Assembly: GCA_964276515.1 (NCBI GenBank)
Contig: OZ193909.1
Coordinates: 18,042,001-18,106,000, forward strand
Direction of reading: 5' to 3'
DNA length: 64,000 nucleotides
Source of the DNA: Gordius albopunctatus
Lineage: Eukaryota
In this document: positions 9,811 to 37,537 of the stretch, piece by piece
How positions within the stretch are numbered: position 1 is the first letter of the stretch
How the letters are laid out: every line of letters begins with the position of its first letter
Notes under the pieces: model-generated
What the model saw: the letters and a program-made list of their open reading frames with translations, nothing else
Told to the model about the DNA's origin: nothing
The model's database searches: none
Translations under genes and position numbers: made by a program

Positions 9811-11002
9811 ATGTTTTAATACGTTGGCGTTTAATTACATTCAAAGTTATGCTATATTCATTTAATAAAAACTCATTCCAAAAACTTTGGTTCCTTGAAA
9901 CACTTTTATCATGCTGAAATTAAGTGACTTACCGGAAAACATGGTAAATTCTAAAGTAATCTTCTCTAGGTAAGGACCAATTTACAACCTAACGAGGCAA
10001 ATACATTTATCAAGAGAGGGAATATAAATTATATCCTGAAGAAGATTTCTATCAGCATGCTCTTAATGAAACAATAAATTATGCATGAAAAATATAAGAA
10101 ATATTTGAATTTCCATACATTTTCTACTTAAATGGAGGAGGATATTCCTTAATCATCCTAAATTAAACTAAATAATTTTGATATTTATAATAGTTATATT
10201 TGGTGTTTAATACACCAATGCAAGGTATAGCAATTTATTCCAGACAGCAACAATTTTATTTCATGTAGGAGTAAAAATGTTTCGCGAGTCAAAATTACAC
10301 GACTCATTATAATTGCGTACACATTGCGTTTATATAATTTATAAAATACATAATCATTATTATTGGAAAAATCGATAATATTCTTGGAAGATTTAATTAA
10401 TCGATGCACTTCCATGAAGGATGATTATTATTCTGGGAACATCTAAATTAATCGATGCGCTTCCATGAAGGACGTCACTGGATTCAATTCTACGAAATAA
10501 ATCGTTATCGTGCAATTGATTGATTGACTCATCGGAACTTGGGTCTGAAGTTATTTCTCGAAAATTTACATCCGCTACGTATATGAAATGCTGTTAAAAT
10601 TTATTTTTGTATTGATCATAAGTTTATTATTTCTTTAACTACCTATTTTTCTAAAAGCTTAAGTGAATTTACAATATATAGAATGTCAAACAACATGTGT
10701 TTTTTTATGACCACCTTTATACAAGTTTTCGCAATCTAGAAATCAGTCATTTTTTAAAGATTTGATATGTGCCTCTCAACATCTCTTAGTATGTTTTTTT
10801 TTAAAACTGTAGTTTGAAAATTATTTGTCAATTTTAAATAAAGTGCTAGGCAAGCCTTTTTCTTTTTTATTTGTTTTTTAATTTATTTATTTTAAATAAC
10901 CATTAAATTATCATATTCTTTTCTTCTATCTATATATTTCTAGCTTTTTCACCATATTTAAAATTTTTATATTAAATTTATTTGCAGTTAATATAATTTT
11001 CT

Positions 11003-12480
11003 CGAGAAATTTCCGGAGTTCCATAACTACATCTTATTAAGTTATGGCTCAACATCCTTTTTAAGATTTGGGGATTTTAAAATAAGTTCATCGGAAGGTA
11101 TCCAACAAGGTGACCCATTGGGTCCGCCATTATTTTGCTCAGATATCCAAAGTTTAGTGGAACAAATATCGCACGAATGCGACCTAAGACTAAATATTTG
11201 GTATTTGAACGATGCCACACTTTGTGGTCATCCTCGCGAAGTTTTTAAAGCCATCAAAATTATAAAGGATTTTGAACCAATTTTAAAACTAAAACTAAGA
11301 GACCAAATGTGAGATCTTTCAAACCCCTGACCACTCATATCCCCACATTACCCCTTTTTAAGCAACCGAGAAAGACGCTATGTACCATCTTAGATCGCCT
11401 ATAGGTGGTAGAGTTGGACTCGCAACTTATTCGGAGAAAATCTCTCTATTTTAAACTCAAAATTAGCTTCACATCACGCTTTTTACATAATGGAAAACTA
11501 TTTTAATATTTCAAAAATTTAGCACTGTTTTCGCATTCAAGTGCTTTTTTACACTCGGAAATTTTGAACCTCTTCGAACAGAATATTATTAAATCTATTT
11601 TACAATCTATTTTAAATATAAAATTCAATACTCATAGCTGGTTACAAGCTTCCCTACCAACCAAATCGGGTGGTTTAGGGACTCGCTCACCTGCCGCAAT
11701 ATCTCTAGTCTCGTTTATTTCAAGTAATAATTCCGTACAAGACACCATTTTTAAGTTGTATCCGGTTAAAGAAGACCCGCTTTTACCCATTGCTTTGGCT
11801 ATTTGGGAAAACAATACCAATCCCGGAACACCTTTGCCACAAACCTCACGACAAAGAGATTGGGATGCCGGACTTGTGTTGCGCTCCGTTGATTATCTAA
11901 TTTCGAGTAGCGATCACCGGGATGATGCTGGGGGACTCGGAACTTTCGTACTCCATAGCTCTCAGGCTAGGGGTGAAATTTTCGAAGCCATTTATTTGCT
12001 GAAATTGCAGCATACTCGTAGACGAGCAAGCCAGGCATCCCTTACACTGCCTTGCAAACAAATTTAAATATGTTAGACGCAATAAGGCAATACCTTAATT
12101 CAAAGTGCACTGAAGAGAGCAAAAATCCCATCGATCTTGGAGCCATCGGACCCCTCCTTGGAGGGACGTATGCTTCCTGATGGATCTTCTTTAGTCCCAT
12201 TGAGCAATGGTCTTCACTTTAAATGGGATTTCACATGTATTGACCTATTTGCCCCCTCTAACTACAACAATGATTCTTTAGCTGTGGCAGAGGGGCGGAA
12301 AACTATTAAATACAAAGCCCTATTATCCTCAAACATTTTTATTCCATTGGTTGCTTCGTGTTCAGGCACCTTTGGCAAACAGGCCTTAACTTTTTTTAAA
12401 GATGTAGGAAGACGTTCTCCCCCCCCCGTCTAAACATTCGGTATCCTTTTTGCTTAAAACAAAGACTTGGTATTCTACAA
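11003..12480 (+). pseudogene. Decayed, 5'-truncated non-LTR retrotransposon (RT plus restriction-like endonuclease; CRE-like)
   Basis: RT motifs SSEGIQQGDPLGPPLF and LNIWYLNDATL (YLDD changed to YLND), WLQASLPTKSGGLG, and C-terminal LEP..PDGSSL..WDFTCID..AEGRKTIKY..F.P..GTFGKQA endonuclease motifs; broken by frameshifts and stops. Confidence 0.85.
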
Positions 12481-13717
12481 TTTTAAATCGTTCGCGGATT
12501 CTTGGCTAATTTTGGAAGATCCCCTCGATGATGATATATTAGAATACAGTCTAAACTTCTTAATCGCAAATCGGATTATCGCGAAAACCTTTTAATCGCG
12601 AAGTTAACCGCCATTTTGTTTTTTTTAACGATAATATTAACAAAAACATCGTTTATTGACTAATCGCTTAATAGTATAATATCGGATATTCACAAACATT
12701 TTCGAGTCCTTAAATCAACCAGATAATTATATAAATTATCGTTTTATTGTGAAGCTTAAGAAATGAATATTTAATATAATGTACATATACGTTTATTTTC
12801 ATCGTTTATTTGGCCTTTGGCCGGGGTCAGATAAAGTAGAAGTAAACAACGGTCATCATTAATTTGGCCGGAATTATTCAGACTTCGCAAACATCCGATA
12901 TATAGCAACAACCTAGACAAGTTGCAAACAGAATTTATGTATAAAGCTAATCAGTCGAGCCAGTAATGGAATTTGGGCTGGGACGAAGTCAAAAAATTAA
13001 AGCCAACCAACCACCGGTCATAGTGTATTTGAGAAAGCAAAATAAAAGGCATTTACAGAAGCATGAGTCCACAGCCATTAAAAGCTTTTATAAGTTTCCA
13101 CGGCAATTATACAAAATTTATAAGGTAGACAGGACACTCAAGACAAGACGAGACAAGGGAAACGAAAAGCGAGCCCATAAATTGCATAGCAATTAAAACT
13201 ATATTTGCATGCAAAATGTGACATTTTGAATTGTAAAAAATTGTAAACATCTACCATATTTTTTATAATTCAAAAAATACAAATAAAAGTTTTTAAGTAT
13301 CTATGATAAATTTTCATAATTAAAACTACTTTTCGTTAGATTTTATTCCACCACCGGTCCATCCGTCGAGCGCCTTTTTACTCCGGTAAATTAATATTCA
13401 TTGGAAAGTGCACTAGTTTATTAGATGACAATATCTTACCATATAATGCCTTGTGTATATACAAAATATTGAATTAATCTTATATATAAAAATGAAACTA
13501 TGTGTGTGTGTATGCCGCCCCCAATTTTGGAAAACTACCAGACCGATTTGGCTCAAAATTTCACAGTTTATTCCTGACACTCCGGAGCATGTTTCAAGAT
13601 TTGTTCGAGCCAAATCGGTCCAGGAGTTTTCGAGTTTGTTTAATACGTTTTGACGTTTAATAATATGTCAAACAAACGCAACCTCATCGTGTTCTTTGAA
13701 AATTTGAATATACAGTC

Positions 13718-16517
13718 TAGAGATCTGCAACGGGCCGTTTTTAGAAGGCCGGCCCGCCCGTACCCATTTTTTAAACTTCAAGGCCCGTCCGGGCCCGCCA
13801 GTAATTTTTTTCCAACACCTCAGGACCGTCCGCAAATTTTTTAGGCCCGTCCAAGCCCGTCCGTAAATTTTTCAGGCCCGTTCATATCTGTTTACAAAAA
13901 CGTCAGGCCCGCCAAAGCCCATTCAGATTTTTCTAAAGAACTCCGCGCCCGGCCCCATAAAAAACTTCATAAAATTTTATTTTATTTGTTGACATAATAA
14001 TAAAAAAATATCAATAATTATTATTGAAAAATAATAAATTTTCAACTATTTCTGCATTTAATACACCTAAAAATTTTCAATATAGTACTACCATTAAATT
14101 ACATTAAAGTATTACAAGAGAATATTCCACTTTCAACAATTTACTTTTATTTGATACATTTAAGTTAATAAACCTAAGAAGTTAGAATTACGTATTACCA
14201 TTAAATTAATAAACTTTAATAAAATTACATAAGAGTATTCAACCTGAAGTTTACATTGATTTGATTAATTTATATCAGTTAATACACCAAATTTTTATAT
14301 TTAAAAAATATTTATAAAATTATATGGCTCTAATAATAAGTATACCAGTAAAATTTGTGATAAAATTAAACACAAAATTTTGGTGCATTGTAACTAAATA
14401 ATTCAACTTATACTTATAAAAGAACTGGATGAACCCGGTAAACGTTGTTTAGCCATTTACCCGGGTGTATTAGCAGAATATATATCATCTTATAGATAAA
14501 TTTCAATAGATTAAGAATATATCAAATATAATTTGTAAGTGTTTATTATGCAAAAATTTTTAAACAAATAGTTAAAGAGGGTCCAAGGCCCAGGCCCACC
14601 CAAGAGAGAAAACCTGGCCCTTTGCCCCCCCCCCAAGGGAAAAATCTTTGGCCCCTGGCCCTTCAAGCAATTTTTTTTAATTTTTTGTAATTAAGAAACA
14701 ATATCATAATTATAATTATTTGTTTCTGAATAAAACTTTTAATTCTGAACTTAATAATGTCCGAAGAACTGAGATATATCAATATTTATTGGCACTTTGT
14801 TAAAAGTATTTTCATTTTTCTCCTTATTTAACGCGCATGAGAAAATTAGATTTTTTAATTTATTTAGCCACGCAGGAGGGGACACGACCGTCCTATAATA
14901 ATAATAATAATAATTGACGTGAAAAATAAGCAAAAAAATGACATTGATATTTAATGTTTCAAAGCCCATAAAAATTTTCCATTTTCCGCAACACAATGCC
15001 TACTGTATTTATCACACTACCTACACGATAGATACGCAGTACGTCAGGAGGTTGCGTTTGATTCACGTTTTATTAAACGGCAAAACATATAAAACGAACT
15101 AACTCAAAAACTACTGGACCGATTTGGCTCGAACATATCTTAAAACATGCTCCGGAGTGTGGAGAATAAACTGTGAAATTTTGAGTTCTCCAAAATTTGT
15201 GGCGGCATACATACATACATACGAATCCGGGTGAACTGGGGAACATACAAATGAACAAAAAGGATGGATGAATGCCGTTGTTAATGCTTTTAAAACATAT
15301 GAACATAGGATTCTAAAGTCTAATTTGCATAATGTTATAACTTTTATAATAAATATAAAAAGCTATAAATAGCACAATATTAAACTATTTAAAGATAATG
15401 CATGAATGTGATAGATTATTTTATATTGGAGTTTAAATGGATAATATTGTAGGTTGAATCTTTGTAAGGCAAGAATGGCACAATATATATTAATTTAAGA
15501 TATATATTAGATTGTAAATTGTATAAAATGTTAGCTTTTAAAGTCAATTTAAAAGATGAAGTGATATAATTATAGCCGTAAACTAATTTTACTCCCTAAT
15601 AAATTTACATTGTATTCATTTTGTATGCAACATGCATCCTAAAAAAGTTGATCGACTATATATGTTATTAATCACAACATTCTTAGAAACACACCTACAA
15701 AATTTTACTTATAAATTATATGTGGGTCAAAAGTAGTTACACCCTTCAAATAAATCACATGTTGCTGCTGCCTGTGCTGATCCTTTATGATACACAAAAT
15801 CACAGTTTCTAACCCTAAAAATCTATTTAAACATGACATTTTGGTATGTATTACAAATCTTAAACTTAGATACTTATATAATCCTAATATACAGTACACA
15901 TTTTGGCAAATTTTAAACAACTTAGTTTCTATCCCTAAAAATCTTCATAAACATGACATTTATAAGTTTAGTTTAAATAAATATTTACCTACTTAAAGAA
16001 GATGCAATAATATAGTATGTTGTATATTGGAGTGCGAACTTTATTATATTATCATGGACGTAGCCGGCATTTCAATTAGAGGGAGGGGCAATAATTATTT
16101 AAGAAGGTACAGAATGAACAATTTAAGAAATTTTAGGTATAATTTTAATAAATGTTAAGAATTTTTTGGATTCAGAGGAGGGCAGCCGCCCCTCTTTGCC
16201 CCCCCCCCCTTGGCTACGCCTATAAATATTGTAGATTTAAAATGAATTCAATTGTAAGGGACTATAAATAGCTTGCTATTTAATTAAAAGAAGATCCAAT
16301 AATATGGTGGTAGATTGTATATTGGAGTGCAAATCGTGTAATATTATAGCTTTTATGATAAGTTTAATTGCAGAAGGCTATAAATAGCCTGTTATAGCCT
16401 GATATTTAACTAGAGAATGTTTCAATTGCAAATTGTATATTATAGATTTTAAAATTAGTTTGATCTTTTTATTACGGGCGGGCCGACTGACCGAAACAGG
16501 CCCGTTGCAAGTCTCTA
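13718..16517. mobile_element. hAT-like non-autonomous element ends
   Basis: TIRs TAGAGATCTGCAACGGGCC / GGCCCGTTGCAAGTCTCTA with repeated GGCCCG subterminal motifs; no matching TSD found. Confidence 0.45.
14425..15225 (-). mobile_element. Second Helitron-like copy, inverted and nested
   Basis: 15050-15225 is the reverse complement of 13503-13690 with substitutions and a short deletion; minus-strand 3' end CAACGTTTACCGGGTTCATCCAG|T at 14425-14447 resembles 18063-18085. Confidence 0.6.
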
Positions 16518-16638
16518 CTCTGAAGATATTTTAGTGTTCTTACCCTGACGATGTTTTCATTATTTTATTCGACTCATTGGTCTTTACTCTCTTAGATAAA
16601 AGAATATTTTGTGCAATTCTAAATGTAGGCAAATTTAT

Positions 16639-17697
16639 TTAAATTTCTAATGGCGATTCATGACTTTGTAGATGCATATAACTAGATACATGGTCAACAT
16701 AATTATATAAATCAATTTTTTCCACGGCATAACTTTGCATTAATCGATTAATATTTGAATTTATAATTTCATATTTACAATTAACAGAGAAGACTTGCTT
16801 CCCTTGTGAAATATGTAATATATTATTATCGATTTTGGTTTTATGTTCGCCAAGATAATTGACAAAATCGTAAATATTGGGGTGGGCCTGACCAATAAGG
16901 CTCTTTATGCTATTGTGGTACCCCTCCAAATGGTTATTTGTGCGGGGCCCTGTTGCATTAAGCCTCTGCCAAATTTCATAGGGAAAAGTGGAGCTTGGAC
17001 AGACCGGTGGCCTGGGGATAAAAGCTCAGATCAGGGACATCCCTTAACCTCTGAGCAATGACCCTGTTATGTATTGTGCTAAGCTTCTCCTTAGACTCAG
17101 CAATCACTGCACTTTTTAGGTCCCGGAGTGTAATGAAATATTCATAATCTCCCCTAGGTTTTTCATGATTGTGTCCAGAAGTGACCTCAGGAAATGTGGA
17201 CATTTTTGCTTTCCTGGGGCACATTTTATCCCTACATTTATAATATGTTGTTGAGGTCTTTGTGGTTATTATTTGGTACAGAAAATTATTAAAATATAAG
17301 ATGGAGCCCTTCCTTTGAGATGGAATAAATTCCATGGTATCTAGAAAAAATCAACATATTATTAAAAGAAGGATTAAAAACGTTGTGGACTGGACTGAAT
17401 TCCTTGCATGGCATCCAACATTGCCTCTGCATCATGAATGCAACCTTAATTTTATTTAAGATTCTATTTAAATTTAAAGTTTAATATTCCAATTAAGAGA
17501 GGTATTGACTAATGATGATGAATTTATCACAGGTAAGGTTCTGGAACCCAAGGTACTTGATACATTAATACCTATATACAAGAATTAGAAAGAATAAGAT
17601 TTGTAATACTAACATCTAAAAGTGGTATTGACTAATGAAGATGATGAATTTATCAGAGGTAAGGTTATAGGACCCAAGGTACTTGATACATTATTAC
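16639..17697 (-). pseudogene. Spliced FLYWCH zinc-finger / Mutator-family transposase remnant with internal deletion
   Basis: FLYWCH-like segment (L.F..FLY...YYKC....C...H.H) at 17335-17165; in another frame FPYEIW...PRTNNHLEGYHN..HPNIYDF (MULE C-terminal motif). In-phase upstream exons 17697-17614, 17571-~17490, 17444-17382 separated by 41-45 nt introns. Confidence 0.75.
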
Positions 17698-18277
17698 CTA
17701 TATACAATTTTGTAGTTCCAAAGATGAAGTCTTAATATTATTGCATGTTTAATTATTTAGTTCTACTTATAATTATTTTAGATTATGGCTACACCCTTGA
17801 AATTGTTATTATATTTTTTTGTTTAAAGAAGTTTTAAGGTTAATATAAAATTAATAGAGTTTCAGTGAGATTTACATCGGTTATTTTGGCAAAAATCTAA
17901 TGGCCCTTTTTTGTGATAAATCTCTTTTATCAGAAGTAATTAGCCATTATGAATTAAAACTGCATAGAAGTAGAACATATAGACATCAAACTTTATTTTT
18001 ACTTCAATAACTTCTTTATCATCTTATATGCCCTGAAATTGCAACATAATTTTATACACCCTGGACGTTTGCCGGATTCATCTAGTTTTATTTTAAAGAT
18101 TGTTCTATGAGATCGCAAATATTTTACCGAGTAATCATAAATGTATTAAAAAATTTTTAAAATAAACTAGTTTCTGTGAAAAGATAACTTTAACATCTCT
18201 ATCCAATTTATATTACTTTATTTAATTTAAAAAATGTGGTACAAAAAGATACAAATGAATGTAAATAAATAATTATC

Positions 18278-20657
18278 ATATAAACTCGGGCCTTCGGCCC
18301 TCGTGGGAAGGGGGAAGGGGAGGAGGGGAAGGAAGGGGGAACTCATCTACACTCCGTATAAATGTATCATATTTGCTATGCAATTTATGGAAATACTTAC
18401 GTGAATATTGCAAAACGAAGGTTGGAAGCACTAAATAAGTGTATATGCCAAATATCATAAAGGGGGAGAGAGGGAGCGAAGGGGAAGCTTTATGGTTAGT
18501 TAAATTCAACGGGAGTTGTATTACCAAAAAGTCATAATAGCAATGGTAGGAACAGGAACAATCATAATAGTCAAAAAAACGAAAAATAATTTTCGAATCA
18601 CATTTTGGCCAAAGGTCATTTTTTCCATTGGTCAGCAGCCAGGACACGGTAAAAGTAGATATAAATTCATAATGGTCAAAAAAAAACGAAAAAAAAATTT
18701 TCGAATCACATTTTGGCCAATGGTCATTTTATTCCATTGGTCAGCAGCCAGCGGACAGCCAAAAAGTCATAATAGCAATGGTAGGAACAGGAACAATCAT
18801 AATATTCAAAAAAAACGAAAAAATAAACTCGGATACACATTTTGGCCAATGGTCATTTTTTTTCCATTGGTCAGCAGCCAGGACACGGTAAAAGTGGATA
18901 TAAATTCATAACAGTCAAAAAAAACGAAAAAAAAGTTTTCGAATCACATTTTGGCCAATGGTCATTTTATTCCATTGGTCAGCAGCCAGCGGGCGGCCAA
19001 AAAGTCATAATAGCAATGGTAGGAACAGGAACAATCATAATAGTCAAAAAAAACGGAAAAAATAATTTCGATTCACATTTTGGCCAATGGTCATTTTTTT
19101 CCATTGGTCAGCAGCCAGGACACGGTAAAAGTGGATATAAATTCATAACAGTCAAAAAAAACGAAAAAAAAGTTTTCGAATCACATTTTGGCCAATGGTC
19201 ATTTTATTCCATTGGTCAGCAGCCAGCGGGCGGCCAAAAAGTCATAATAGCAATGGTAGGAACAGGAACAATCATAATAGTCAAAAAAACGGAAAAAATA
19301 ATTTCGATTCACATTTTGGCCAATGGTCATTTTTTTCCATTGGTCAGCAGCCAGGACACGGTAAAAGTGGATATAAATTCATAACAGTCAAAAAAAAACG
19401 AAAAAAAATTTTCGAATCACATTTTGGCCAATGGTCATTTTATTCCATTGGTCAGCAGCCAGCGGACGGCCAAAAAGTCATAATAGCAATGGTAGGAACA
19501 GGAACAATCATAATATTCAAAAAAAACGAAAAAATAAACTCGGATACACATTTTGGCCAATGGTCATTTTTTTCATTGGTCAGCAGCCAGCGGACGGCCA
19601 AAAAGTCTTATTATCATTGATAGTAACAAGAACAATCATAAGAGTCAAAAAAAACTCCGGGATTCTAACCCAAAAACTAGATAAATTGCATAGCAATTAT
19701 TAAAAAGTATAGGGTAATTATCAATGTTAACCTATTCAAAAACGAACAAAAAATTTTGATTTATTTGGCCAATGGTAATTTTTTTCAATTATCAATGTTA
19801 ACTTATTCAAAAAGGAAAAACGAAAAATTAGGATTTATTTGGCCAATGTTCATTTTTTCATTGGTCAGTAGCCAGCGGACGGTCAAAAAGTCATATTATC
19901 AATGGTATTAACAAGAACAAAATATTAAATTAATTAAAAAAATAAAAATTTTGCCCTCTCCGGGATTCGAACCCACATTAAATAGAGGCATAAGCCTTTG
20001 GAGGGGAACAGGGAACCATATAAATAGAGCCATAGGCCCTTGTAGGGGAGGGCATAGGGTAATTATCAATGTTAAACTATTCAAAAACGAAAAATTAAAA
20101 ATTTCGATTTATCTGGCAAGTGGTCATTTTTTCATTGGTCAGTAGCCTGCGGACGGTCAAAAATTCATATTATCAATGGTATTAACAAGAACAATATATT
20201 AATTTAATTTAAAAAAAAATAAAAATTTTTGTCCTCTCCGGGTCTCGAACCATCAATTTAGAACGTTCGCAGGGATTCAAACCCACATTAAATAGAGGCA
20301 TAAGCCTTTGGAGGGGAACAGGGAACCATATAAATAGAACCATAGGCCCTTGTAGGGGACGGCATAGGGTAATTATCAATGTTAAACTATTCAAAAACGA
20401 AAAATTAAAAATTTCGATTTATCTGGCCAGTGGTCATTTTTTCATTGGTCAGTAGCCTGCGGACGGTCAAAAAGTCATATTATCAATGGTATTAACAAGA
20501 AAAAAATATTAATTTAATTTAAAAAAAAAAAAATGTTTGTCCTCTCCGGGTCTCGAACCCGCAACCTCCAGGTCGGGAAGCTGGTGTAAATAACTTGGTA
20601 GACGGACGGACGGACGGACGGACAACCAAAAACGAGCCCATAAATTGCATAGCAATT
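18278..20657 (-). mobile_element. DINE-1/HINE-like (non-autonomous Helentron-type) element with central tandem repeats
   Basis: 18-bp subterminal inverted repeat TTGCTATGCAATTTATGG (18373-18390) / CCATAAATTGCATAGCAA (20638-20655); terminal hairpin GGGCC-TTC-GGCCC (18288-18300); (GACG)5 microsatellite at 20601-20623; internal tandem arrays. Confidence 0.75.
18520..19620. repeat. Higher-order tandem array of alternating ~108 and ~129 bp units (~237-bp dimer)
   Basis: Core TTTTGGCCAA(T/A)GGTCATTTT..CCATTGGTCAGCAGCCAG starts at 18603, 18711, 18840, 18949, 19078, 19186, 19314, 19422 and 19551. Confidence 0.95.
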
Positions 20658-20709
20658 AAAATATCTAAAATTAAATGTACATTGAAAATTGTCATCATTT
20701 GTAATTTTC

Positions 20710-21750
20710 TTAAATAGAAGTAAGAATATCTTCAATAACTGATTCTTCTAAAAAATTTTCAAATTTCTCGAGGTCGAGAGTTCGCTGTAGTTTGCCTAAT
20801 TCATTATTTTGTTCAAGGGTTTCGGCTTCTTTTATTGCGTATCTTCTCAGTATTCTTCTTGCTCCAGATGCCCATAATCTAGTTTCTCCGAGGTTAATAA
20901 AAAATTTATTTACCACAACTTTGCTGAAAATGCTGTCCAGGGGCTCTGTGTTATCATCATCCAGAAGGGCCAAGAGTTTTGTATAGACCCTTGGACTTCT
21001 TTTGGCTGACAAGAAAGTAAAACTTTTTTTATTTAATAGCCTTGCAAAAGGCCAAGTTTGGCTTTTGTTAGACTTAAGCCATCTTAACATGCGAGTTATA
21101 TCCTTAACTGCACAGCGGTCTATTGGACCAAGAAACAATTCTACCGCTATCCTATATTGCACTTTGTATTTGTTTGCTATAACCATTGGCAGTGTAAATA
21201 TAGGCATTCCATTACAATACAATTGCTGTAGACAAGATGACTTGAAGTACATTTTGATTTGAGATTCACTATCACTTGGCTCCCCCGTTTCATTAGTAAT
21301 TTCCCGACATATTTGTTTGATTAAGGTGATGAACGGCAAAGTTGATCTCACTACAAAGCAGTTAAAATTAGTCCAGGCTCTTTGGTCTATTTGGATTGGA
21401 GGACATGAGAAAGATAAAGATTTATAGAGAGCTTTAAATAAATTGTGAGATTTTGTTGGAAATGCATTCCGTACATTAGAAACATTTTTGACAATTAGTC
21501 TGCAAAGAATCAAGCAAATATGAGACAATCTCGCCACTAGCATTTTGAGTAACCTATTTCTTCCACAAACAAGGTAGTAATAACAGGAGATTTTGTAATT
21601 ATAATCAGATGCCAATATTGCAGCATTAATTCCTTCCGATCCTGGATAATTTTCTCCTAAGATTTTTTGAGGGTCTGTAATAGAAAGTCCAAAGCCAACC
21701 AACTCATTTAAATAAGGAAGGTCTTTAGTTCCATGTTCTGGAATACATGT
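20710..21750 (-). other. Candidate endogenous viral element: rhabdovirus-like nucleocapsid (N) protein ORF
   Basis: Intronless frame open for ~346 codons in a genome whose genes have short exons. Ordered motifs ICLILCRLIVK, FKALY, QLYCNGMPIF, RCAVKDI, TWPFARLLNKKSFTFLSAK..P.VY..L resemble the conserved blocks of plant/invertebrate rhabdovirus N proteins. Recognition only; no search run. Confidence 0.7.
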
Positions 21751-21751
21751 C

Positions 21752-21954
21752 TAGAGTTGTTAAATTGCTAACTTTCTTCAACTCCAGCTACCATCTGCTC
21801 GAGTTTCTGCTTGGTCCTCAAGCATTTTTATATGCTAATGTTCTACCTAGTGCACCGAACAGAGAGTGCATATTGTGCTAACGCGCATATTAAGCAACTC
21901 AGTGTGCGTGCTCGCGTCTGGAGTTTGAAGAAAGTTAGCAATTTAACAACTCTA
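21752..21954. mobile_element. hAT-type MITE (203 bp) inserted at the 5' part of the N-like ORF
   Basis: ~37-bp TIRs TAGAGTTGTTAAATTGCTAACTTTCTTCAA(A)CTCCAG; 8-bp TSD TACATGTC (21744-21751, 21955-21962). Confidence 0.92.
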
Positions 21955-22228
21955 TACATGTCAAATCTTCCACAAAATGGCATTAACATGTAGATGAGAT
22001 GGCGAATGGCAGTAAGAAATAAAGGTCGATTCAATATAAGCGTGTTTCTACCTCTCATTATGGTGAAAGGAAACAAAATACGTTAAAGTAAATGTGTAAC
22101 GATATACATTTAAAACACTACTAAAAATAATCAATTTAACGATAATGGGCAAGGTAGTCTGAAAAATTGTATCAAAATTGATTGAACATGTATAAAAAAC
22201 AGAGTAAGTTATTACTAAGCTAAAAATA

Positions 22229-22460
<232 letters not shown>

Positions 22461-22502
22461 TTTAAAAAAGGTGTGGGAAGGGAAATGCCCATATTTTGGC
22501 AA

Positions 22503-23308
22503 CTAATAGACCTTTTTGGATGCGGCAAACGCTATTTTACCCCTGGCCGCCTTGGAAACCTGCGGGTAAAATTTGGATGCTTACTTAAGTAACAACACAA
22601 CATAATTTCTTTAATTCTTGCCCTTTAAATTATCACATAAAATTTCACAATATAAATAAAAATAAATAAGTATGAAACATCAATCTTATATATATAGGCA
22701 ATGATATAAGAGATATGCAAAATAGGCAATTTATATACATTATTCTAAAATTATATAGGGTTTTATAAACAGAAAATTAAGAAAAAAGAATACAAATTTT
22801 ATTTGAATTTTTCAATTATGTATGACGTCATTATTGTATATGATGCTATAAATGAAACTGGCCGGAAAATGTCCGATATTTTTAAAACGAAAAGGTATTT
22901 TAGGAATCTGAAGAAGCTTTTTTACCCCTGGACGCCCTGGGAACCTACGGGTAAAGTTTAGAGCGAATCGGGCTGGTAGTTTCAGAATTTAGCCCTTACA
23001 TACATACACTTTACTTTATATATATACATGGGCGTAGCCAGCTTTCGGATCAGGGGGGGGCGAGCAAAACGCAACTACTAATCTCAATATTTAATTCTTA
23101 TATAATTTAAATTTGCGTCAAAAGGTCGTCAAATAAAATTTTCAACATAAAACTTAATTTCAATCAGGGGGGGCGAAACACTAATTTTTTCCAATTTTTA
23201 CATAAATTTACATTAAAAAATAGAAAAATTCTCATTCAGGGGGGGGCGGCCGCCCCCCCCCCTGCCCCCCCCCCTGCCTACGCCCATGTATATATAGATA
23301 TATAGATA
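22503..23308 (-). mobile_element. Helitron-like non-autonomous copy interrupted by a MITE in its TA-rich 5' end
   Basis: Minus strand reads TCTATATA..[MITE]..TATATAAAGTAAAGTGTGTATG..GAAACTACCAGCCCGATT, similar to the 13478 head; GCGTTTGCCG near the putative 3' end. Confidence 0.45.
23027..23288. mobile_element. MITE of the abundant CATGGGCGTAG...CTACGCCCATG family
   Basis: 11-bp perfect TIR in a (TA)n context with poly-G/poly-C subterminal tracts. Related, mostly decayed copies near 1180, 16053, 29527, 31380, 36195, 43716, 45740, 48811, 49719, 53250, 54055, 54281, 56561, 57819, 58739 and 60262. Confidence 0.8.
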
Positions 23309-23345
23309 TACAAAGTTCCTATATTAATTTATCACAACAAATTAT

Positions 23346-24704
23346 TTGCTAAGTATTTTATACAACTAAGTATTTTTAGCGTCATTGTTAAGTATTTTAT
23401 TCATTTGCTAAGTATTTAATTCGTTTGCTAGGTTTTTTAATTAATGCTAAGTTTTAAATTCAAATGCTAGGTATTTTATTCATTTGCTAAGTATTTAAAT
23501 AAATTATGCTAGGTTTATAAATAAATTATGTTAAGTATTCAAACGATTTTATAAATTTTAAAACAAATTAAACTGTCTGTTTTTTATATAACATTTAATA
23601 TGACATTGTGAATGTGATCGAACAATAACTGGCGTTCTTTGGCACCAAGATCACACACCAATTTGACATACATTTATTTAATTACTTAATTATGCAAGTC
23701 CAACAAATCTCGCCTTATTTATGAGACGAAGAGGAAGAAGCAGGAAGCTCCGGAGTTGAAATTCATAGCAGGTAGTGGTACAGATATTTTTTTATTCAAA
23801 TCTAAAATAAATTCCCCCCCCCCTTATTTTTTACCCTTTTCGTCACCAGGGAGATTTTTTACCCTCTTTCTCACCAGGGAGGGGGGGGGGCAAATTACTC
23901 CCCTCCCCCCTGTTAAAAAGGGGTAAAAAGAGGGGGGGTGGGCAAATCACCCCCTTCCCCCTGGTTAGAAAGAGGGTAAAAAATAAGGGGGAGGGTTGAA
24001 AAAAGGGGGGGGGGGTAAAATCACCTCCCTCCCCCCCCCCAGGTGAGTAAAGGGTAAAAAAGAAGGGGGGGGGGCAAATCACCCCCCTCTCCTCTGGTGA
24101 GAAAGAGGATAAAAGATAAGGGGGGGGGGGAGGAACCAACGGGACAAAAAGATGGAGAGGGGCAAAGTTCTTAATTTATTTTAAAAAAAATTTTATACCA
24201 ATTAAAATATTATTTATACAATATAAGCGCAAAATAAATAAATCTGAGCATTTTAAAGTTAATTTACTGAGCAATTTTGAATTTTTAACTGAGCACTTTA
24301 ATAAAATACTGAGCCCATTTTACTGAGCATTTAAATAACATCCTTAAAATTAAACATTTCCTTTGAAATTATTACCATTAAAACTTTGTCCTTTTTAGCT
24401 TTAAAACCTTATTATCTTATATTTTTTTAATACTCAGCATTTTGATTAAAATTCATAATTTAGATTTTTTAAATAAAATACTTGTCATTTTAATAAAAAA
24501 AACTTAGCATATCAAAATAAAAACTTAGCAATTTAATAATAAGAACTTAGCATTTAAAAACAAAATCCTTAGCATTTCCTTTAAAATACTTAGCATTTAG
24601 ATTAAAATACTTGGCATAAAATACTTAGCCTTCTTTAATAAAATACTTAGCACTTTAATTAAAATACTTAGCATAAATAACTTAGCAATTTGTAATTAAC
24701 ACCC
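23346..24704. mobile_element. Foldback-like element with inverted arrays of short subrepeats and a G/C-run core
   Basis: (TGCTAAGTATTT)-type subrepeats at 23346-23540 and their reverse complement (AAATACTTAGCA) at 24470-24692; poly-G/poly-C minisatellite at 23810-24130. Confidence 0.6.
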
Positions 24705-26230
24705 TTAATTTATGTGGCAAGCTTCATTCCATTTTTGCGGCAAATTTTTAAAGATTCAATAATACTTATGCTGTCAACGTGTACGTGTATAACATCGCAG
24801 TAGTTCTTGCCTAACTACCTAATATTTATTTGCGTTCGTAAAAAAACACTGGCAATATAAAATTATAAGGCAAGAGACGAGGGAAGAATGAAAAATAATC
24901 AAGCAAGTATATTATCTTAAATAGGAAACGCATCGTAAACCCTCATCTTTGTCATTTTGATGTCGAGACGAGACGAAATTTTATCGGCGAGATCTCGACT
25001 TTTTTTATCGTTATATTTTAGTAAATTATTGTGTATTTTAATTTGCATGTTTTACATTTAAGGTATTAAGTTTAAATCAATACGTATGAAATATATTTGA
25101 CATTAAAAAAATTCCTGTAAATATTATATTTTTTGCAGGATTTACCTAAGTATGGTTGACTCTTAGGGTATGTGAATAATTTTATAATATCTTTATCACA
25201 TATTTGAATCCATAGCATTATTAGATATTACAAAATTATAGGCTTAGAATAAGTTCTGATTGAATAGTAAATATAAACAAAGCATATTTATATTTCGCAG
25301 TTATTCATCCTGCATAATGCGGGAATTATAAATTCGTGGTCAATCAGTTTGAATAATTAAACTAGTTAAGCTAAGGTGGCTCGAGATTTTTTAGCACCCG
25401 CTTAACGATTTCAAAAGTAAAATAGATTATTTAATGACACCGCAATAGATTAAATCTAAAGCATGAGTTTTCTAGACGTTTTATGCTTCAACTATATTCG
25501 ATAAATAACTATTTAATGTCAAAGTTAGTTAGAATTGGAAGATAATTATTTGGAATATAAATTTGATTTTAATGATTTTTGTCATAAATTTAAATACGTG
25601 CAATTTAGAGTTTAAAACCTCATATTCCGCTTTTATTGTTGTTTCTACCCCTTTTTATATGTGCATCTAGTTATCAATTCTGTAAATAATAATATTATCC
25701 ATTAAAAGTCACTCGCACATTGTGGTTTATAACGCTATAGTAAAAATTCAATAAACACTATGAGCTATAATTAATAATGGTACTAATGGACTTAAATGTT
25801 TGCCTTAAATATGTTAAGGTCTATTTGAAGCTTTAGCCAGGGTTAATAAAGGATCTCAATTTGCTAAATTGTGCAACCAAGCCAACTATAACCGAAATTA
25901 TTATTTTCTAAGTCTATATAGTTGACAAACACGGTGATTTGATACAAACGAAACGGTATAATTTGCTAGAACAATAAAATTTAATTTTCTATACTTCAAA
26001 TTTATTTATAGTTTTTTAGTCTGCACTTTCCATAGAAAATGTTATTTTTTTAATGAATTCATATCTTTATATTTACAATGAGATGTCGTGTCCCGCTAAA
26101 TCTTTAAAAAGTTTGTGTATTAAAGTTTATCAAAAAATATAAAAATTTGCCATTTTAATTTTTAAAACTTATTTCATATTTTTAATAAAACAGGAGAAAT
26201 TTTTATTCCGTATATATTTTTTTAAAAAAG

Positions 26231-26340
26231 TCGAGACGAGACGAGATCGAAATTTTTCTAGACCGAGACGAGACGAGATTTTCATAATCGCTGCCGAGAC
26301 GAGACAAGATTTTGTTTTCGAGACCGAGACGAGACGAGAT
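26231..26340. repeat. CGAGA(C/T) pentamer clusters, probably transposon subterminal repeats
   Basis: Four CGAGACGAGAC clusters here and another at 24964-24975. Confidence 0.6.
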
Positions 26341-27463
26341 CAAAACACTAAAGATTTACGAGAAAGATGATTTCTCATAAATGACATATACATAGTCAGA
26401 AGTTTAGAAGATTTGTAAATGTATAATTTAAATTTTGCTATTAATATTAAAAATAAATCTAGAGTGACAAGTATTAAGAATTCTCATAGACAAATCAGAA
26501 TTGTATTTTATAAAGTTATATGGCTAGTATAGTTCTATTATTAAACTCAATACTGTAACATATGTTTGTTTATATATATACTGTCTTATATCAAACTAAT
26601 TTATTCTTTATGCTATAAATTGTTCCATAATATTTGTTACTTATATTTATTGTCATAACCAAAATAATGCATATTTATTTCTGCAGTGTAAGGCTTAATC
26701 TATTAAATAAATGCTTTTTAATAATATCGCCCAATGATCAACAAATTTATCCTAATTTATGTTATACGGGTTTAATTTATTATATGCTTGCTTATATGTA
26801 TTGCCAATAACAACTTATGTTTACTTATTTGATATACTATATTTCTTATCATGGCGGGAAACATTTTATATTATAGTAATATAAAACTTTATATAATTAC
26901 AATTCATTAAATGAGTTTATATGTATCGCTTAATAACATATTTATATCTAATCCTTTTTATATAGTTTTTAGTATGGCTGAAGACGTTTTCATCCTACTT
27001 TGCTATACAGGAATTTTTGAACAGGCATTATATTTAAAAACTATATAAAATATATATATTATTGTATATTTGCTATATTTAAAATTAAATTTTACGATTT
27101 TGCATCTTGTTAATTAATGCGTTAGTTTGTAGAAGATGTCTACTTTATTAATAAATAAGCCAAAGATAATGTGGTTATCGTTAAACATTAGTTTATATAG
27201 CATTGTATCGAGGTTAATATGAATAACATTATTAAATCGCTGTAAGATATTAAAATTCGAATGAGCGTGAATAGAGTGAGAATAAATTTGAATTGAGTGA
27301 TATCCAAATCATAAAGATACCAGTATTCTAATCTGGTAATACCATAAGTTATTATGTCGATTAGTGCTTATGGGTCCAAATCAAAAATTGTATCTAGATC
27401 ATCTAGATGCGATAATCAGCTGATTACAAATTTTGTTAAATAAAACATGGTTAACTTCTTGAT

Positions 27464-30400
27464 ATGATTAGCTTGCCGAATAACCTATCTCAATTTTCAG
27501 ATTATGCATATTGGGAAAAGTTTTTTAAAAATTTAGGCGATAAAGATTTTGAATGGTATGTTGTTTTTTTTATATTTAATTTTTAAAGGTATGGAGAATA
27601 TAAAGATTTTTCTGACATCTTAATGCAAATAATAAAACCAGAAGACATAGTTCTGGTAGTTGGATGTGGCAATTCCAATTTAAGCTTTTCATTATATTCA
27701 GATGGTTTTCCAAATATAACTAATATTGATATTAGTGATAAGGTTGTTAAACAACTAACTGAAAAGAGTATAAAGCTGAATATGAAGATGTCTTTTTTAA
27801 AAATGGATGTTCTTAAGGTAATTACATATTAGAACTAATTATTTTAAAATATGTAAAACTTGATATTATAAATTTTATCTTAAACTATAGATTCCACTTT
27901 AATTTATAGAAATATGCCAAATTAATTTGAATATTATCTTGAGTTTTAGGCAAAATTTAATATCTAAATTTTTTAGCCTTGACCTATGGTTGGTAATACT
28001 TTAAAATATAGTGCCATTAAAAATAATTTATTGAAATTAATTCTCATATATTCATAGGATAGTCATATTTTGTTAGTGTTGATTTTGGAAAAACTCTATT
28101 GCCTAAAAAGTGGTTTATTATTCAAGTATCATTTTAATCCTTAAAAGATTAATATATCTCAAATAATAATTTTACTTATCTCCAAGATAACACTTGTTTG
28201 GGGTCATTAAAATAATTATTTCTAAAAATAATGCCTAATTACCATTCCAGTTTATTTGAGTTCTACTTATATTTCTTTACTGAGGTTGTTTTTTTTGGTA
28301 GATGACATTTCCTGATAATACCTTCAATGCAGTTGTGGATAAAGGAACTTTAGATGCTCTTGCTCATGGTTCAAGCAGAGAAACATATGAAAGGTTATCA
28401 AAAATGTGGTCAGAGATCTTAAGAGTTTCACTTGCTGAAACAAGGGAAGATGAAGAATTAGCTAGGTACATTTGTGTCAGCTTAGCTCAAGGTCATATAT
28501 TAGACATGATTGATTCATTTTTTATTTCAAAATCCTCCAAACTCCCACATAGTTCAAGCGTGGATCAACTTAAAGTTTTTGTAGTCAAAAAGGAGGGAGA
28601 AATATTTCCAATTTTTGTTTTCGTATTTTACATTGTCAAAAAACCATGTAAATCAAAGAATGCAAAAAGTGAAAAGTTAGAGAAGTCATTGAATAAATCC
28701 ATAAAATCCACGATATTTCAAAGTGTAGACACTTCCAATGATGTAACTCAGTATGAATCTTATGCCCAATTGGTAAATTGGATTAAAACACATCAGTACC
28801 ATTATGCCTTGAAGCAGAAAGACATTAAAGAAAAGTCAGCAATCTTTTAATACAACAACTTATTTAAAGTTAATTCTATGCTTGTTTTTATTTTTGTTAA
28901 ATTAAATGTGATTGATAAATCTTATTGTGCTGTCAAAATCTAAATTCGAGATTTTTATCATTTCAAATTGATTATAGTTTAAGTTTCAAGCAAAAATATG
29001 CAATATTAAGAGAAATTCAATTGTTGAATTCATATAAATGAAAATTTTTGAAGCTAGGCTACCCCCCCCCCCGGTCACTATCCCAATTTTTGTTGGTGTG
29101 CAAACCTGAATTAAAATTTAGAATATATCTTATATTTTTATTTACTTTTTTTTTAAATGTTATTTCTTATTTTAAATTTCAGTGCAGATGGAGATCACGA
29201 AATTTCGTTTAATCTTTTCATCAACGAAGAGGACAAAGAGCCCCGTTACACGTTTTACCTGACTAAATGCCCGGATGAATTTGTTGAGGATGATGGCCAA
29301 CATAAATTTGCGGCTTTTTTAGTGCCACTGGGGCGGTAATATTTTAAAAACATTTAATTAACATTTTTTTTAATATTGTTATGCAATTTATGCTTTCGGT
29401 TTTCCCCCTGTCTTGTCCTGTCCGGCTTATTTAACTTGTAGCCTTATCAATTTTCAATCTTTTATTTGAATTCTGCTTGATATGATCTTAACGAAATTTT
29501 ACATTTTGTATAAAAATGACTTTATACATGGTCTAGCCATCATTTCACATGGAAATGGTGAAAAAAACTCGGTGGATATTTTGGGAGAAGCAAAACCGTG
29601 ATATATTGAATATTAAACCATAATTTTATAAGAGGAGGGGAGGGGGCAGTGCTCCTTTTTGCTCCCCCTTGGCTAAGCCCATGTCTGTATAACTAATGCT
29701 GAAAAGCTCGAATATATCGATTCAGATTTGTTAATGAAAATTGCGTTAAAATTAACCAACAGTGTATTTGCTGTGTTTTACATCTTTTTTATGGATTTAT
29801 AGCTATGGCAAGTTAATCATGCTAATATATAATATATAGGGAAACTACGAATTTTCGGTGATTTTTTTATATCTTGCACCATAGTGGTGCCATTTTTTAT
29901 TTATATAATGCCCTTTTTCCTCCATTTTAGATCATTGCTAATACATTTCTGCTCCGTACAATAATCCAAACTTTAAATATCAATATTAATAGAGTGTAAA
30001 ATATTGTTTTTCTTCACTGCGAAAGTTTGATTTTAGCGATGCACATTTTATTTGGCTAAATATGTATTTAGGGAAGGCGAGTGGCTCTTCAATACACCCA
30101 AAGGCAGAATTACTCTAGCAAAATCGGCTCGGTTTAAACGTTTGATCATAGTACACCAGAACAGAAATCATAATTACGGAAGCCTAGAAAGCATTCAAGA
30201 TGAACTTTCCCCGGCCATAGAACGATACAAGCCCGACGACCTGCTCTCTGGCCAAAAAGTTTGTTCAGTTTTTTTTCGACTTGCAAAGTAGTTTTAGAGG
30301 GGGGGGTGGAGGTTGATTTTAAAGAAAGGAAAGGATTAAAAATTTTGACTTTTGAGTTGATTTTTTGGATTAAAGGATAGCTGGTTTATGTATATATAGC

Positions 30401-33400
30401 CCAACCACCTGTTCTCCGACGAAAAACTATGTCTAGTTTTTTTGGACTTGCAAGGTAGTTTTAGAGGGCGGATGTTTGATTTTAAAGAAGGGATTAAAAG
30501 TTTTGGTTGGTTTTAAACGGTGAAAGTTGCTAAAATTGAATAGATTTTTTTATGTAGAAGATTATAGGACCCCGGGAATGAGTTATGAGTGTCTAATATA
30601 AAAAACAAAATTAACGCTATTTATAGCTTTAATTTTGTGCGCTTTTAACGTTATTAAATAAATATCTATATTCTGGTTATATTCAGAAAAAAAGAGGTTG
30701 TGGCTATCCACCTTAGACCCTTTCGAATAAAAATTTAATTTAAAATGGCTCGAGATATATATAATATGGGTAAATTCAATTTTAGCACTCCTGGTTGTAT
30801 GAACATGGGAGTTTTTATATTTCATATATGCATGCAGGTATCAAGGCTTGCTAATGAATAAGTGATGAGCAATTTGAACCATGATTTTGTTCAATGCTTA
30901 TAATAGATTTTGGGGCAAATGACCCTTTTTGCCACTTTCTAGCTAGACTTGTGTATATAATAGTAGTAGTGTTGTGACCAAAGATTTGACCTGGTCCGTT
31001 TTTCTTAGTCGCATAAGCAGACCAAAGAACTATTGAATCTAAAGTTTTACCTGATATCTTCTCGAAATACGCTAGATTCCAATCCTGTCATTGGGAGACG
31101 ATACGCTAGAACGTGAGGTGGTAGAGAAGGGCTTGACATCGTGTAGCGGTTATGAATACCAAGTTGAGGATGTAAAATTGGAGGAGCACGAATTTTGGCT
31201 TAGGCGCCTCTACTTTTTGAACGCGCCGAGTTTGATTCAAAGCGAAATTCGCTTACTAAGTAAAAACTCACTTGCTCTGCCTTTTAATCATTTTTTTGTT
31301 AATATTTAATGGTTTTCGTGGTGGTAATGGGTAGAATTATGCTTAGACTAATGGCTAACAAGTGAATTTAGTAAATAACATTGGCGTAGCCAAGGAGGAC
31401 AGCGAGGGACTGCCCCCTCTAAATCCAAAATTTTGTCTAAATTTATTAAAATTTATGGCTAAAATTTCAAAAAATGACTTTTTTGCCTCCCTAAATCATT
31501 ATTGCCCCCCCCTCTAATTCCAATGCTGCTTAAATAAAATATATTATAGATGGCGCTAATTTTAAAATATTATCTCCTCAAACACGCGAATAATGGATTT
31601 TCATTTATTACCAATTACAATCTAGTTTAAAAATTCTTCACCTATAAATTACTTTCTTTTTTTTGTTAAGCGGTATAAGCTAAATATCAATCTTTATTAA
31701 TCATATTATATTAAACCTATAATTCTACTTATATTCTAACTTACCTAACCCCATTCTTAAATTTTAACAGACGATATAAATAACAATGTTATACAAATTT
31801 GAAAAATTCAAATAAAATTTTTGTTCATTATTTAATTTTCTGTTTATAAAAAAACAACGGCATGATAATACGTGTTAGGGCTTCGCCGGCTCCCGCCTTG
31901 ACAGCCGAGTGACGCGTATTCCTGGCCGTCACTGTAGGGTCAGGAGTTAAGGACTTGTCAGTTTCTTCTCCGTCAGCATCTATCATTGAGGCAGTTTCTA
32001 TGTTATAAAAATTAGTAATTTATTGTACTTTATTGAATATAAGGGAATTGGGTAAATTAAGATATTTTTATAATATTTACTTTTTTGTAGCGTTGTTGGA
32101 TAAGGGGATAAAATGTAATATAAGGGAATTAGGTTTAGTTGTTGGATTTGGAAAAGGGGATAAATCATATATCTGTTCATATAGGATTGCATACAGGCAT
32201 ATAATACATGTGGGTGGGAAGTTTTATCTCGCTGGCAGCATGTGCGGTGATAAAATAATAACAACATACATGACATAGCAATTAAAGGCAGTTGCTGCTA
32301 TAACCCAGTGGCGTAAATAAAGGGGGAGGGAAAAATAGTTAATAATGTTTAAATGTATATATCGCTCGCACCCAGCAAATAAGCTTGGCTCGAGAGTATG
32401 TTTTTGGGAGACATTAATTAGGGTTAATAAATAACCTATCAAAATTAATTTAGCGATAACAAATATTATTTTTTTAATTTGAAAAGGTGCCTAACATTGA
32501 GAAATATGTATTTATTAAATTACTATTAAATAAAAAATTTATGATATTTCTAGCTGTCTCGACATTTTCCTCTTCGAAATTGAAGGATTCAGGTTGTGAA
32601 GCATAATACTTCTCTAAATCTTTAGCTAATTTTGGGTGAACCGTAAATTTATTGTCTAAAAACATTTTAGTGACCCAAGCAATTGTAGTAGATGCTTCGT
32701 AATCTTTGCAACTCTGGGGGGGGGGGGGGGAAAGTCGACGTTTCAGATCATTACAACGGTCTATAAATACATACGAGTCAAAAAAAACAAAAAAAAATTC
32801 GATTCACATTTTGGCCAATGGTCATTTTTTCATTGGTCAGTAGCCTGCGGACGGTCAAAAAGTCATATTATCAATGGCATTAACAGGAACAATCATAAGA
32901 GTAAAAACGGTCTATAAATACATACGAGTCAAAAAAACGAGAATTGGCCAATGGTCATTTTTTTCCATTGGTCAGTACCAAGAGATACTCACTTTGGCCA
33001 ATGGTCATTTTTTCCATTGGACAGTAGCCTGCGGACGGTCAAAAAGTCATATTATCAATGGCATTAACAGAAACAATCATAAGAGTAAAAAACGGGAAAA
33101 AATTTTCGATTCACAATTTGGCCAATGGTCATTTTTCCCATCGGTCAGCAGCCAGCGGACGGCCAAAAAGTCATAATAGCAATGGTAGTAACACGAACAA
33201 TCATAAAAAATTGCATAGCAATTAATATATATATATATATATATATATATCAATGGTATTAACAAGAACAATATATTAATTTAATTTAAAAAAAATAAAA
33301 AATTTTGTCCTCTTCGCGATTCGAACCCACATTAATAGAGGCATAAGCTTTTGTAGGGGCACAGGGACCCATATCAGTAGAGGCATAGGATAATTAGCAA

Positions 33401-36400: not shown

Positions 36401-37537
36401 ATTTAAAAATAGAAATATTTACCGTTTTCAACATGTTTTTGTGTGAACAAACCTAGCTTCTAGCAAGTGTAAAACTGAAGTTGACGATGGCCTGACTTTC
36501 TTGGCCAAAGATAAATCGGTTTACGATATAATAATCATCGACGTTAACACGAATGATCCCTCCGAAGCTTTATTTTCACCTCCGGCGTCTTTTATAACCC
36601 CGGAACATATAAAACTTTTCCAAAATTCGCTCAATATAAATGGTAAAATATCGATTTAGTCTACTTTTTCATTATATATGATGACTAAATTAAGTTGGAG
36701 AGTGAGTTTGAATTTGGTTTTAAGAGATAAGTTTGGAAAATTGTTTGTTGCATGGTCAATAATTTTAGAATATGTTGTATTAAATTCCTTTTTCCTAATT
36801 TAAAGGTTTTATTTTCAAGGGTGATAGATCGTTTTTCAGTATCACAATCAATGTCTTTTGAAACTTTCGTTAAAATGTAGAAAGAAAATTGCTAAATTTT
36901 CGGGGAAAAAATTGTTTTGATTTTAGAAATGAATACTATCTATTTTAAAATCAGTTCTTATAAATTACATATTGGATAAATCAGAATAATATCTTACTTA
37001 ATTACTTATATTTACTAAAATATTATGGATTTATCTTTTTTGGACAAATTTCATGATTTTGTTATATGTTTTTCAATATAAATTTGTACTAAGAAACATG
37101 TGAATATAATTTTTTGAAATTTTAGCGATTCAACAAATTATCTGATTCATAGGGTGGCACCCCCCCCCCCTCCCGGCTAAGAAATGTAAATTTGTGTCTT
37201 TATTGCAGGAGTGCTAATGACGACCGTATTAACACGCGATGCCCAATCAATTGAAAACGTGGAAGAAATATTTGCCAAAGCGTTCCCCGAACCATGCTCA
37301 CGCGCCCTGATTGATTTGGGTGACCAAGAATTGGATAAAGTTATACAAATAACTTATCGAGACACAAAATCCTCGGCTAATACGCAGGAAAAAGATGCCC
37401 TAACTCAAAGATATGCGGCATTTGAAAATTATTTAGGTGCTGTTCTGCGTGAAAAATTAAAGGAGAAGGGGGAGAGGGTTGAAACTGAAGATTATGTGTT
37501 TGATTTGGGAATGTATTTGGAGAGAAAATTGTTTTAA
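27464..37537 (+). CDS. METTL13: eEF1A lysine and N-terminal methyltransferase (two methyltransferase domains)
   Basis: Exons: 27464-27555, 27589-27817, 28302-28834, 29183-29335, 30072-30258, 31076-31259, 35275-35409, 35673-35786, 36457-36642, 37209-37537. N-domain [35 protein letters not shown]; linker FLVPLGREGEWLF, RRLYFL..LIQSE; C-domain [35 protein letters not shown]. Confidence 0.94.
32530..32716 (-). pseudogene. Isolated serpin-like coding fragment, antisense within a METTL13 intron
   Basis: Translates [50 protein letters not shown], matching the serpin s2A-hE-s1A-hF pattern (..F....F.....L.KYY....S.DF.....AR..IN). No other serpin exons found. Confidence 0.6.
32745..33991 (-). mobile_element. 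Second, partial copy of the DINE-1/HINE-like element
   Basis: Same TTGGCCAATGGTCATTTT..CATTGGTCAG units, long near-identity to 20150-20657, GACG microsatellite and terminal GAGCCCATAAATTGCATAGCAATT. Confidence 0.85.
34140..34605 (-). pseudogene. 3' fragment of a CRE-like non-LTR retrotransposon (endonuclease region)
   Basis: Minus-strand [21 protein letters not shown].., [25 protein letters not shown] and [13 protein letters not shown], with frameshifts. Confidence 0.8.
34680..34960 (+). pseudogene. Related retroelement 3' end in the opposite orientation
   Basis: [38 protein letters not shown] is homologous to the 34140-34300 segment; followed by AATAAA. Confidence 0.65.

Follow-up and report, generated by a model that had tools for sequence, protein, structure and literature searches.

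The minus-strand open frame at positions 20710-21750 of the window (the whole 64,000-nucleotide stretch of DNA that was analysed) is likely to belong to a non-retroviral endogenous viral element of a divergent rhabdovirus-like lineage. The explanation that we favour, with somewhat better than even confidence, is that it represents a 5'-truncated DNA copy of the nucleoprotein (N) gene of a distant invertebrate rhabdovirus, made on the N mRNA as template and carried in the germline, fixed or segregating, as a non-coding fossil.

Properties of the reading frame

From stop to stop the frame comprises 346 codons (20710-21750, minus strand) and encodes a 5'-truncated rhabdovirus-like N sequence. It is the longest of the six frames of at least 150 aa found in the window, whereas the longest frame in 30 local-composition shuffles of the window measured 105-179 aa. 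These results agree with the first-pass annotation, which had described an intronless minus-strand frame of about 346 codons as the longest in the window. The ORF is without an intron, whereas the neighbouring gene METTL13 is split into short exons. The same annotation had set the frame in AT-rich DNA, but the ORF itself turned out to be slightly less AT-rich (35.2% GC) than the window (31.5% GC). CpG is depleted in the ORF, with an observed/expected ratio of 0.47 as compared with 0.88 in seven stretches of host exons and 0.89 in the window.

That the frame has no ATG at its 5' end, as had been noted, was confirmed: the earliest in-frame Met is residue 70. The opening two to three codons are the target duplication of a MITE, and the bounding stop upstream of the frame spans the junction between the MITE end and this duplication. 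The 5' limit of the frame is not of viral making. Since this limit is set by the MITE, with a multi-copy host repeat beyond it, the viral gene is 5'-truncated, and the truncation explains the absence of the ATG.

Similarity of the protein to rhabdovirus nucleoproteins

In a Pfam profile search the 346-aa frame matched PF03216 (rhabdovirus nucleoprotein) with 27.4 bits (E 2.8e-6). The curated gathering cut-off of this family is 25 bits, and PF03216 was the sole Pfam family at E<=1, so that the Pfam check proposed in the first-pass annotation came out in favour of a rhabdovirus N. The match (20986-21540, minus strand) places residues 71-255 on model positions 107-286 of 293, almost without gaps (185 residues versus 180 model positions). 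When the two halves were scanned apart (residues 60-165 and 166-270), each matched PF03216 at the expected positions and in register. The C-terminal half matched over residues 173-255 with E 4e-4; the N-terminal half matched over residues 71-110 with E 0.13, a level at which two other families score alike. Residues 1-59 and 271-346, scanned separately, had no Pfam match. The five motifs which had been listed from the sequence were found in the stated order, at residues 82-88, 105-109, 177-182, 212-218 and 233-250. The protein evidence thus consists of one profile family, 2.4 bits over its cut-off.

Searches of other collections did not yield a relative of the 346-aa protein. There was no NCBIfam family at E<=10, none of the 2094 and none of the 1368 candidates from single-sequence protein searches was related, and no relative was found among 1.84 billion protein representatives (E<=0.001) or in viral and metagenome contigs. 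In the solved structures no N chain matched at E<=10. Because the single-sequence searches gave no relative, an alignment could not be built, and the structure models predicted from the single sequence had pLDDT values of 39.5 and 36.0; fold searches with these models were uninformative.

The nearest neighbours of the protein in the ESM Atlas were bacterial hypothetical proteins and tyrosine recombinases, and viral N proteins were absent among the neighbours. Similarity was 0.92-0.94 for integrase-like clusters and 0.95 for unnamed bacterial proteins, values that would suit a non-viral origin, in which the frame would be what is left of a Crypton/DIRS-like tyrosine-recombinase transposon, or else an orphan host ORF whose Pfam match is due to chance. 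We also take the size of the ORF to fit a tyrosine recombinase. However, the features shared with these neighbours numbered 76-125 of 256, below the 170 that are typical for true family members. Tyrosine recombinases have a catalytic HxxR motif. This motif was not found in the 346-aa protein, in which His occurs only at residues 6, 77 and 102, and recombinase profiles in Pfam or NCBIfam did not match the frame. As the motif is missing, the tyrosine recombinase identity was rejected. A non-viral origin, which is largely refuted by the absent catalytic motif, would also leave the colinear PF03216 match and the gene-end motif described below unexplained, and we consider it very improbable.

A more exact position within the rhabdoviruses does not follow from the profile match. 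The PF03216 domain is reported, in the available text of the sources, from the plant rhabdovirus SYNV, a midge rhabdovirus and a mite rhabdovirus (PMC10491862, PMC10535300, PMC11512250). As the domain is found across plant, midge and mite rhabdoviruses, it does not fix the subfamily. The placement close to cyto- and nucleorhabdoviruses in particular, suggested initially, is therefore not supported so far, and we consider Deltarhabdovirinae or an unassigned lineage to be as likely as a plant-virus genus. The ICTV genera of rhabdoviruses are defined by L phylogeny, and the family has hosts including insects, ticks, crustaceans, nematodes, molluscs and platyhelminths (PMC13249128); at this locus there is no L sequence. 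When 21 of the other frames (from the 99 of at least 70 aa in the window) were compared with Pfam, no viral family was detected, so that N only, and no P, M, G or L, was found.

The gene-end signal and the 3' side

At the 3' end of the frame there is a gene-end or polyadenylation-like signal, TTAAGAAAA (20705-20713, minus strand; 3'-AAUUCUUUU-5' in genome sense), which contains the stop codon. Among the 99 window ORFs of at least 70 aa the 346-codon frame alone has its stop codon within TTAAGAAAA, and GAAAA follows TAA in 5 of the 5305 TAA triplets of the window. In the part of PMC10747219 that was available, Table 5 gives AAUUCUUUU for the 3'-end signal of the mRNAs in several alphacytorhabdoviruses and in all five trirhaviruses. 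The signal at 20713-20705 is identical to this consensus. Such a signal is not family-specific, and near variants occur in lispi-like viruses according to the available text of PMC13709462. The motif at the stop codon supports a mononegavirus origin independently of the protein match; as it was spotted post hoc and has variants in lispi-like viruses, this support does not extend to a genus.

Beyond the signal lie 43 nt of unique AT-rich DNA (20662-20704), whose coding strand contains 17 A and 18 T. A poly(A) tail was not found in these 43 nt, and the signal itself holds only four A. There was no convincing target duplication for the viral insert, the longest matches between the flanks being 5-6 nt. 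Thus, the signature of a LINE-processed copy, poly(A) together with a target-site duplication, is absent from the insert. The bases that follow the motif (20704-20690, minus strand) start like the A-starting spacer of gammacytorhabdoviruses, as given in the available part of PMC10747219, and an ATG comes 5 nt past the signal. The spacer-like bases and the ATG could represent a gene junction or could have arisen by chance.

The flanking repeats and the route of capture

The MITE that adjoins the frame (21752-21954) is 203 bp long, has 37-nt terminal inverted repeats and is present in very high copy. It is bordered by an 8-bp target duplication (left copy at 21744-21751, plus strand; right copy at 21955-21962), from whose length we take it to be of hAT type. 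Another copy, at 1472-1673, shares 92% identity with it and is likewise bordered by its own 8-bp duplication. The depth of the MITE was very high in all three public runs that were read, and the family to which the two window copies (1472-1673 and 21752-21954) belong is abundant in organism B too.

Past the MITE there is a multi-copy host repeat (21955-22227, plus strand) with stops in all three minus frames. In run X1 the summed depths on this repeat were 11,009-30,940 versus 240.9 on the ORF, and many variant contigs of it were present in all three runs read, including that of organism B. It is followed immediately by a perfect (ATAA)58 array (22228-22461, plus strand), a tail which suggests that the repeat is possibly the 3' end of a retroposon. 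In the MITE and the right-hand repeat (21812-22142) private differences from the respective families are mostly G/C to A/T transitions, several of which affect CpG sites, and this suggests that the locus is methylated and decaying.

The left flank is formed by a host repeat array (18524-20662, plus strand) with a short terminal hairpin near 20642-20657; more copies of it lie at 13.2 kb and at 32.8-34.0 kb. The composite repeat (18524-20662 and 32778-33996) combines tandem units of 237 bp and 310 bp with a tRNA B-box-like word, a (GACG)n stretch and the terminal hairpin, and presumably resembles a Helitron-like non-autonomous element.

The arrangement on the right-hand side brings up a different route of capture, in which a retroposon/virus chimera was formed. 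Reverse transcription would have started on the plus strand at the (ATAA)n tail, copied approximately 270 nt of the retroposon 3' end, switched inside N to the negative-sense viral genome RNA and read past the gene-end signal into the gene that follows. Later, the MITE would have inserted near the point of the switch. The plus-strand order of antisense N, MITE, multi-copy repeat and perfect (ATAA)58 tail has the polarity predicted by such a process, and the four A of the signal with no poly(A), as well as the ATG 5 nt farther on, are consistent with it. Template switching by a retrotransposon reverse transcriptase is also the route named, in the available text of PMC5497376, for mosquito viral DNA, there with LTR elements. 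On the other hand, a second copy of the right-hand repeat was found neither in the window nor in the metagenome contigs, so that its status as a retroposon is unsupported, and the sole word shared by the flanks is a 6-mer in AT-rich DNA. Repeats are dense in this region (self-repeat amounts to 28% at 10-27 kb of the window), and adjacency can be due to chance. Moreover, the insert ends no more than 43 nt past the gene end, as a copy of an mRNA naturally would, whereas for a genome template such an end would be a coincidence. Taking these points together, we regard the chimeric route as unlikely. Copying of the N mRNA is preferred because the gene-end signal marks the end of the recognisable viral sequence, which on its 5' side is truncated; with no poly(A) and no convincing target duplication at the insert, this route is one that we can only infer.

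The genomic setting

The DNA of the window is of animal origin and contains spliced genes along with many transposon remnants. Pfam matches to C1 and RhoGAP at 1-6 kb belong to a gene which we take to be RacGAP1-like. METTL13 is spliced and extends over 27473-37537 (plus strand); the gene on the other side of the intergenic region is presumably PYM-like. The METTL13 sequence shows 36-46% identity over the aligned parts to ten animal homologues, values which may indicate that the host lineage is fast-evolving or poorly sampled. In an intron of METTL13, on the opposite strand, a weak serpin match (PF00079, E 4e-4; 32474-32803, minus strand) is possibly a nested gene or a remnant.

Remnants of transposases were seen at 39184-39886 (hAT, PF05699; minus strand) and at 16639-17350 (FLYWCH-containing, PF04500, E 6e-4; minus strand), the latter assumed by us to be Mutator-like. 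Broken frames of a non-LTR retrotransposon at 10992-12433 (plus strand) contain reverse transcriptase-like and restriction-like endonuclease-like words, and we suppose that they are CRE/NeSL-like; three pieces of these frames had no Pfam match.

Integration, related sequences and age

Two of the seven public runs, both from organism A and from one study, contain 85-86% of the words. In both of these runs a single 1138-nt contig (20638-21775) was obtained, with 0 differences from the window. It overlaps the MITE by 24 nt and the left repeat by about 25 nt, and thus on both sides falls short of the 31 nt of the bridge rule. The virus-like sequence is joined to host DNA on both sides, with host repeats at the joints and spliced host genes nearby. 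The earlier claim that an RNA-virus gene had been integrated into host DNA is thus sustained by the flanking host repeats and by the identical contig in two runs. An assembly artefact or contamination by viral sequence could be argued from the short flank overlaps and from the origin of the matching contigs in a single study, which may be the source of the assembly. But the same contig with both host junctions was recovered twice without a difference, the junction has a MITE end with intact target duplication and an RNA virus has no DNA stage. An artefact is, in our judgement, the least credible of the explanations.

In the run of organism B, about half of which was read, residues 171-200 are covered by a piece of 89 nt that shows 10 differences and has no flank. 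Three of the 10 differences are listed: two share a codon whose residue they leave unchanged, and one alters the residue. The remaining ORF was nearly uncovered at 85% likeness in this half of the run. The piece points to a related viral sequence in what would be a related organism, and may equally well be an orthologous copy or a separate insertion.

The MITE copy departs from at least 99% of the depth at 3 of its 203 places (run X1), two of which are clearly of the CpG type. With assumed rates, the probability that the frame would stay open under drift at 1-2% divergence was 0.64-0.41 when indels were left out and 0.32-0.10 when 0.1 indel was allowed per substitution; at divergence of at least 4% it was 0.16 to 0.001. 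Assuming that the viral insert is as old as the MITE copy, the open frame is unremarkable and compatible with drift. The earlier suggestion that the gene has been retained for a function is accordingly not supported, as neutral drift accommodates the open frame, and the element is probably non-coding.

If the element had been domesticated, selection would keep the frame, and a short N, starting from Met70 or made by way of a spliced leader, would interfere with the nucleocapsid of related viruses. Met70 stands immediately before the entire profile match (residues 71-255), two of the three visible differences in the 89-nt piece are silent, and at a divergence of at least 4% drift alone would be unlikely to leave the frame open. 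These observations are offset by others: seven of the 10 differences are out of sight, the same pattern would be equally expected if a related virus, itself under selection, had been inserted independently, and in the half of the organism B run that was read hardly any of the ORF outside the piece is covered at 85% likeness. Besides, the frame lacks its start and was linked to no host exon. Domestication therefore appears improbable to us. A more far-reaching scenario, that a deep unsampled rhabdovirus lineage left related N insertions in at least two species of a little-studied invertebrate group, that capture was retroposon-primed on the genome strand and included a gene junction, and that the frame or an antisense RNA was kept as antiviral defence, we hold to be unlikely.

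Discussion

Returning to the truncated mRNA copy as the preferred explanation, the following course of events can be proposed. During an infection, the reverse transcriptase of a host retroelement would have copied the abundant N transcript, beginning at the transcript 3' end, i.e. at the gene-end signal, and halting short of the start codon. The cDNA would then have been integrated in the germline, in the repeat-rich intergenic region between the PYM-like gene and METTL13. The MITE, which lies no more than a few bases away from the 5' junction, may have been inserted earlier or later. That the frame is still open would most likely reflect a young insertion rather than selection, and for any current role, service as a small-RNA template is a candidate.

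Provided that the element is viral, its sequence is evidence of a rhabdovirus-like lineage that lacks a close relative in the protein libraries searched, and it could extend the known host range of the PF03216-type rhabdoviruses to a host whose METTL13 is 36-46% identical to its homologues. Endogenous viral elements of this kind are already well known; the present one is of value because it is far from sampled viruses and because its junctions can be read. With the gene-end signal retained and the junctions mapped, the route of capture (mRNA versus genome strand) becomes testable at one locus. Such ORFs also call for caution, since in transcriptome surveys they have been taken for live viruses, as described in the available text of PMC11512250 and PMC10956553.

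The element shares features with several groups of known elements and viruses, as these are described in the available portions of the cited papers. Mammalian N elements derived from bornaviruses and filoviruses by LINE retrotransposition likewise consist of a single N gene ending at the gene 3' end, but typically have target duplications and poly(A) (PMC2987831), neither of which is present here. In this respect the element is like the insect elements, which are without target duplications and poly(A) (PMC2987831). Among the rhabdovirus integrations of Aedes, Culex and Ixodes, N is commonly captured and some ORFs are intact (PMC5497376, PMC2987831). The Aedes integrations lie beside LTR elements, in piRNA clusters, and yield piRNAs (PMC5497376, PMC2987831), whereas the neighbours of the present element are a MITE, a tailed repeat and a repeat array.

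With the N proteins of Betarhabdovirinae and of insect and mite rhabdoviruses (PMC10491862, PMC10535300, PMC11512250) the element has the Pfam profile PF03216 in common, though compared with PF03216-type N proteins it scores near the cut-off and is unaccompanied by P, M, G or L. The bases past its signal do not fit the G-starting spacer of plant rhabdoviruses, while the signal itself equals the alphacytorhabdovirus/trirhavirus consensus (PMC10747219). N-derived rhabdovirus elements with long ORFs are reported from mites, mosquitoes and ticks (PMC11512250, PMC5497376, PMC2987831). In Tetranychus urticae two nucleocapsid-like elements of 1032 and 1239 nt have large ORFs and a conserved domain (PMC11512250). 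These were found by BLASTX similarity, whereas the present element is without a sequence-level relative in the libraries searched; in size and in kind, the mite elements match that at 20710-21750.
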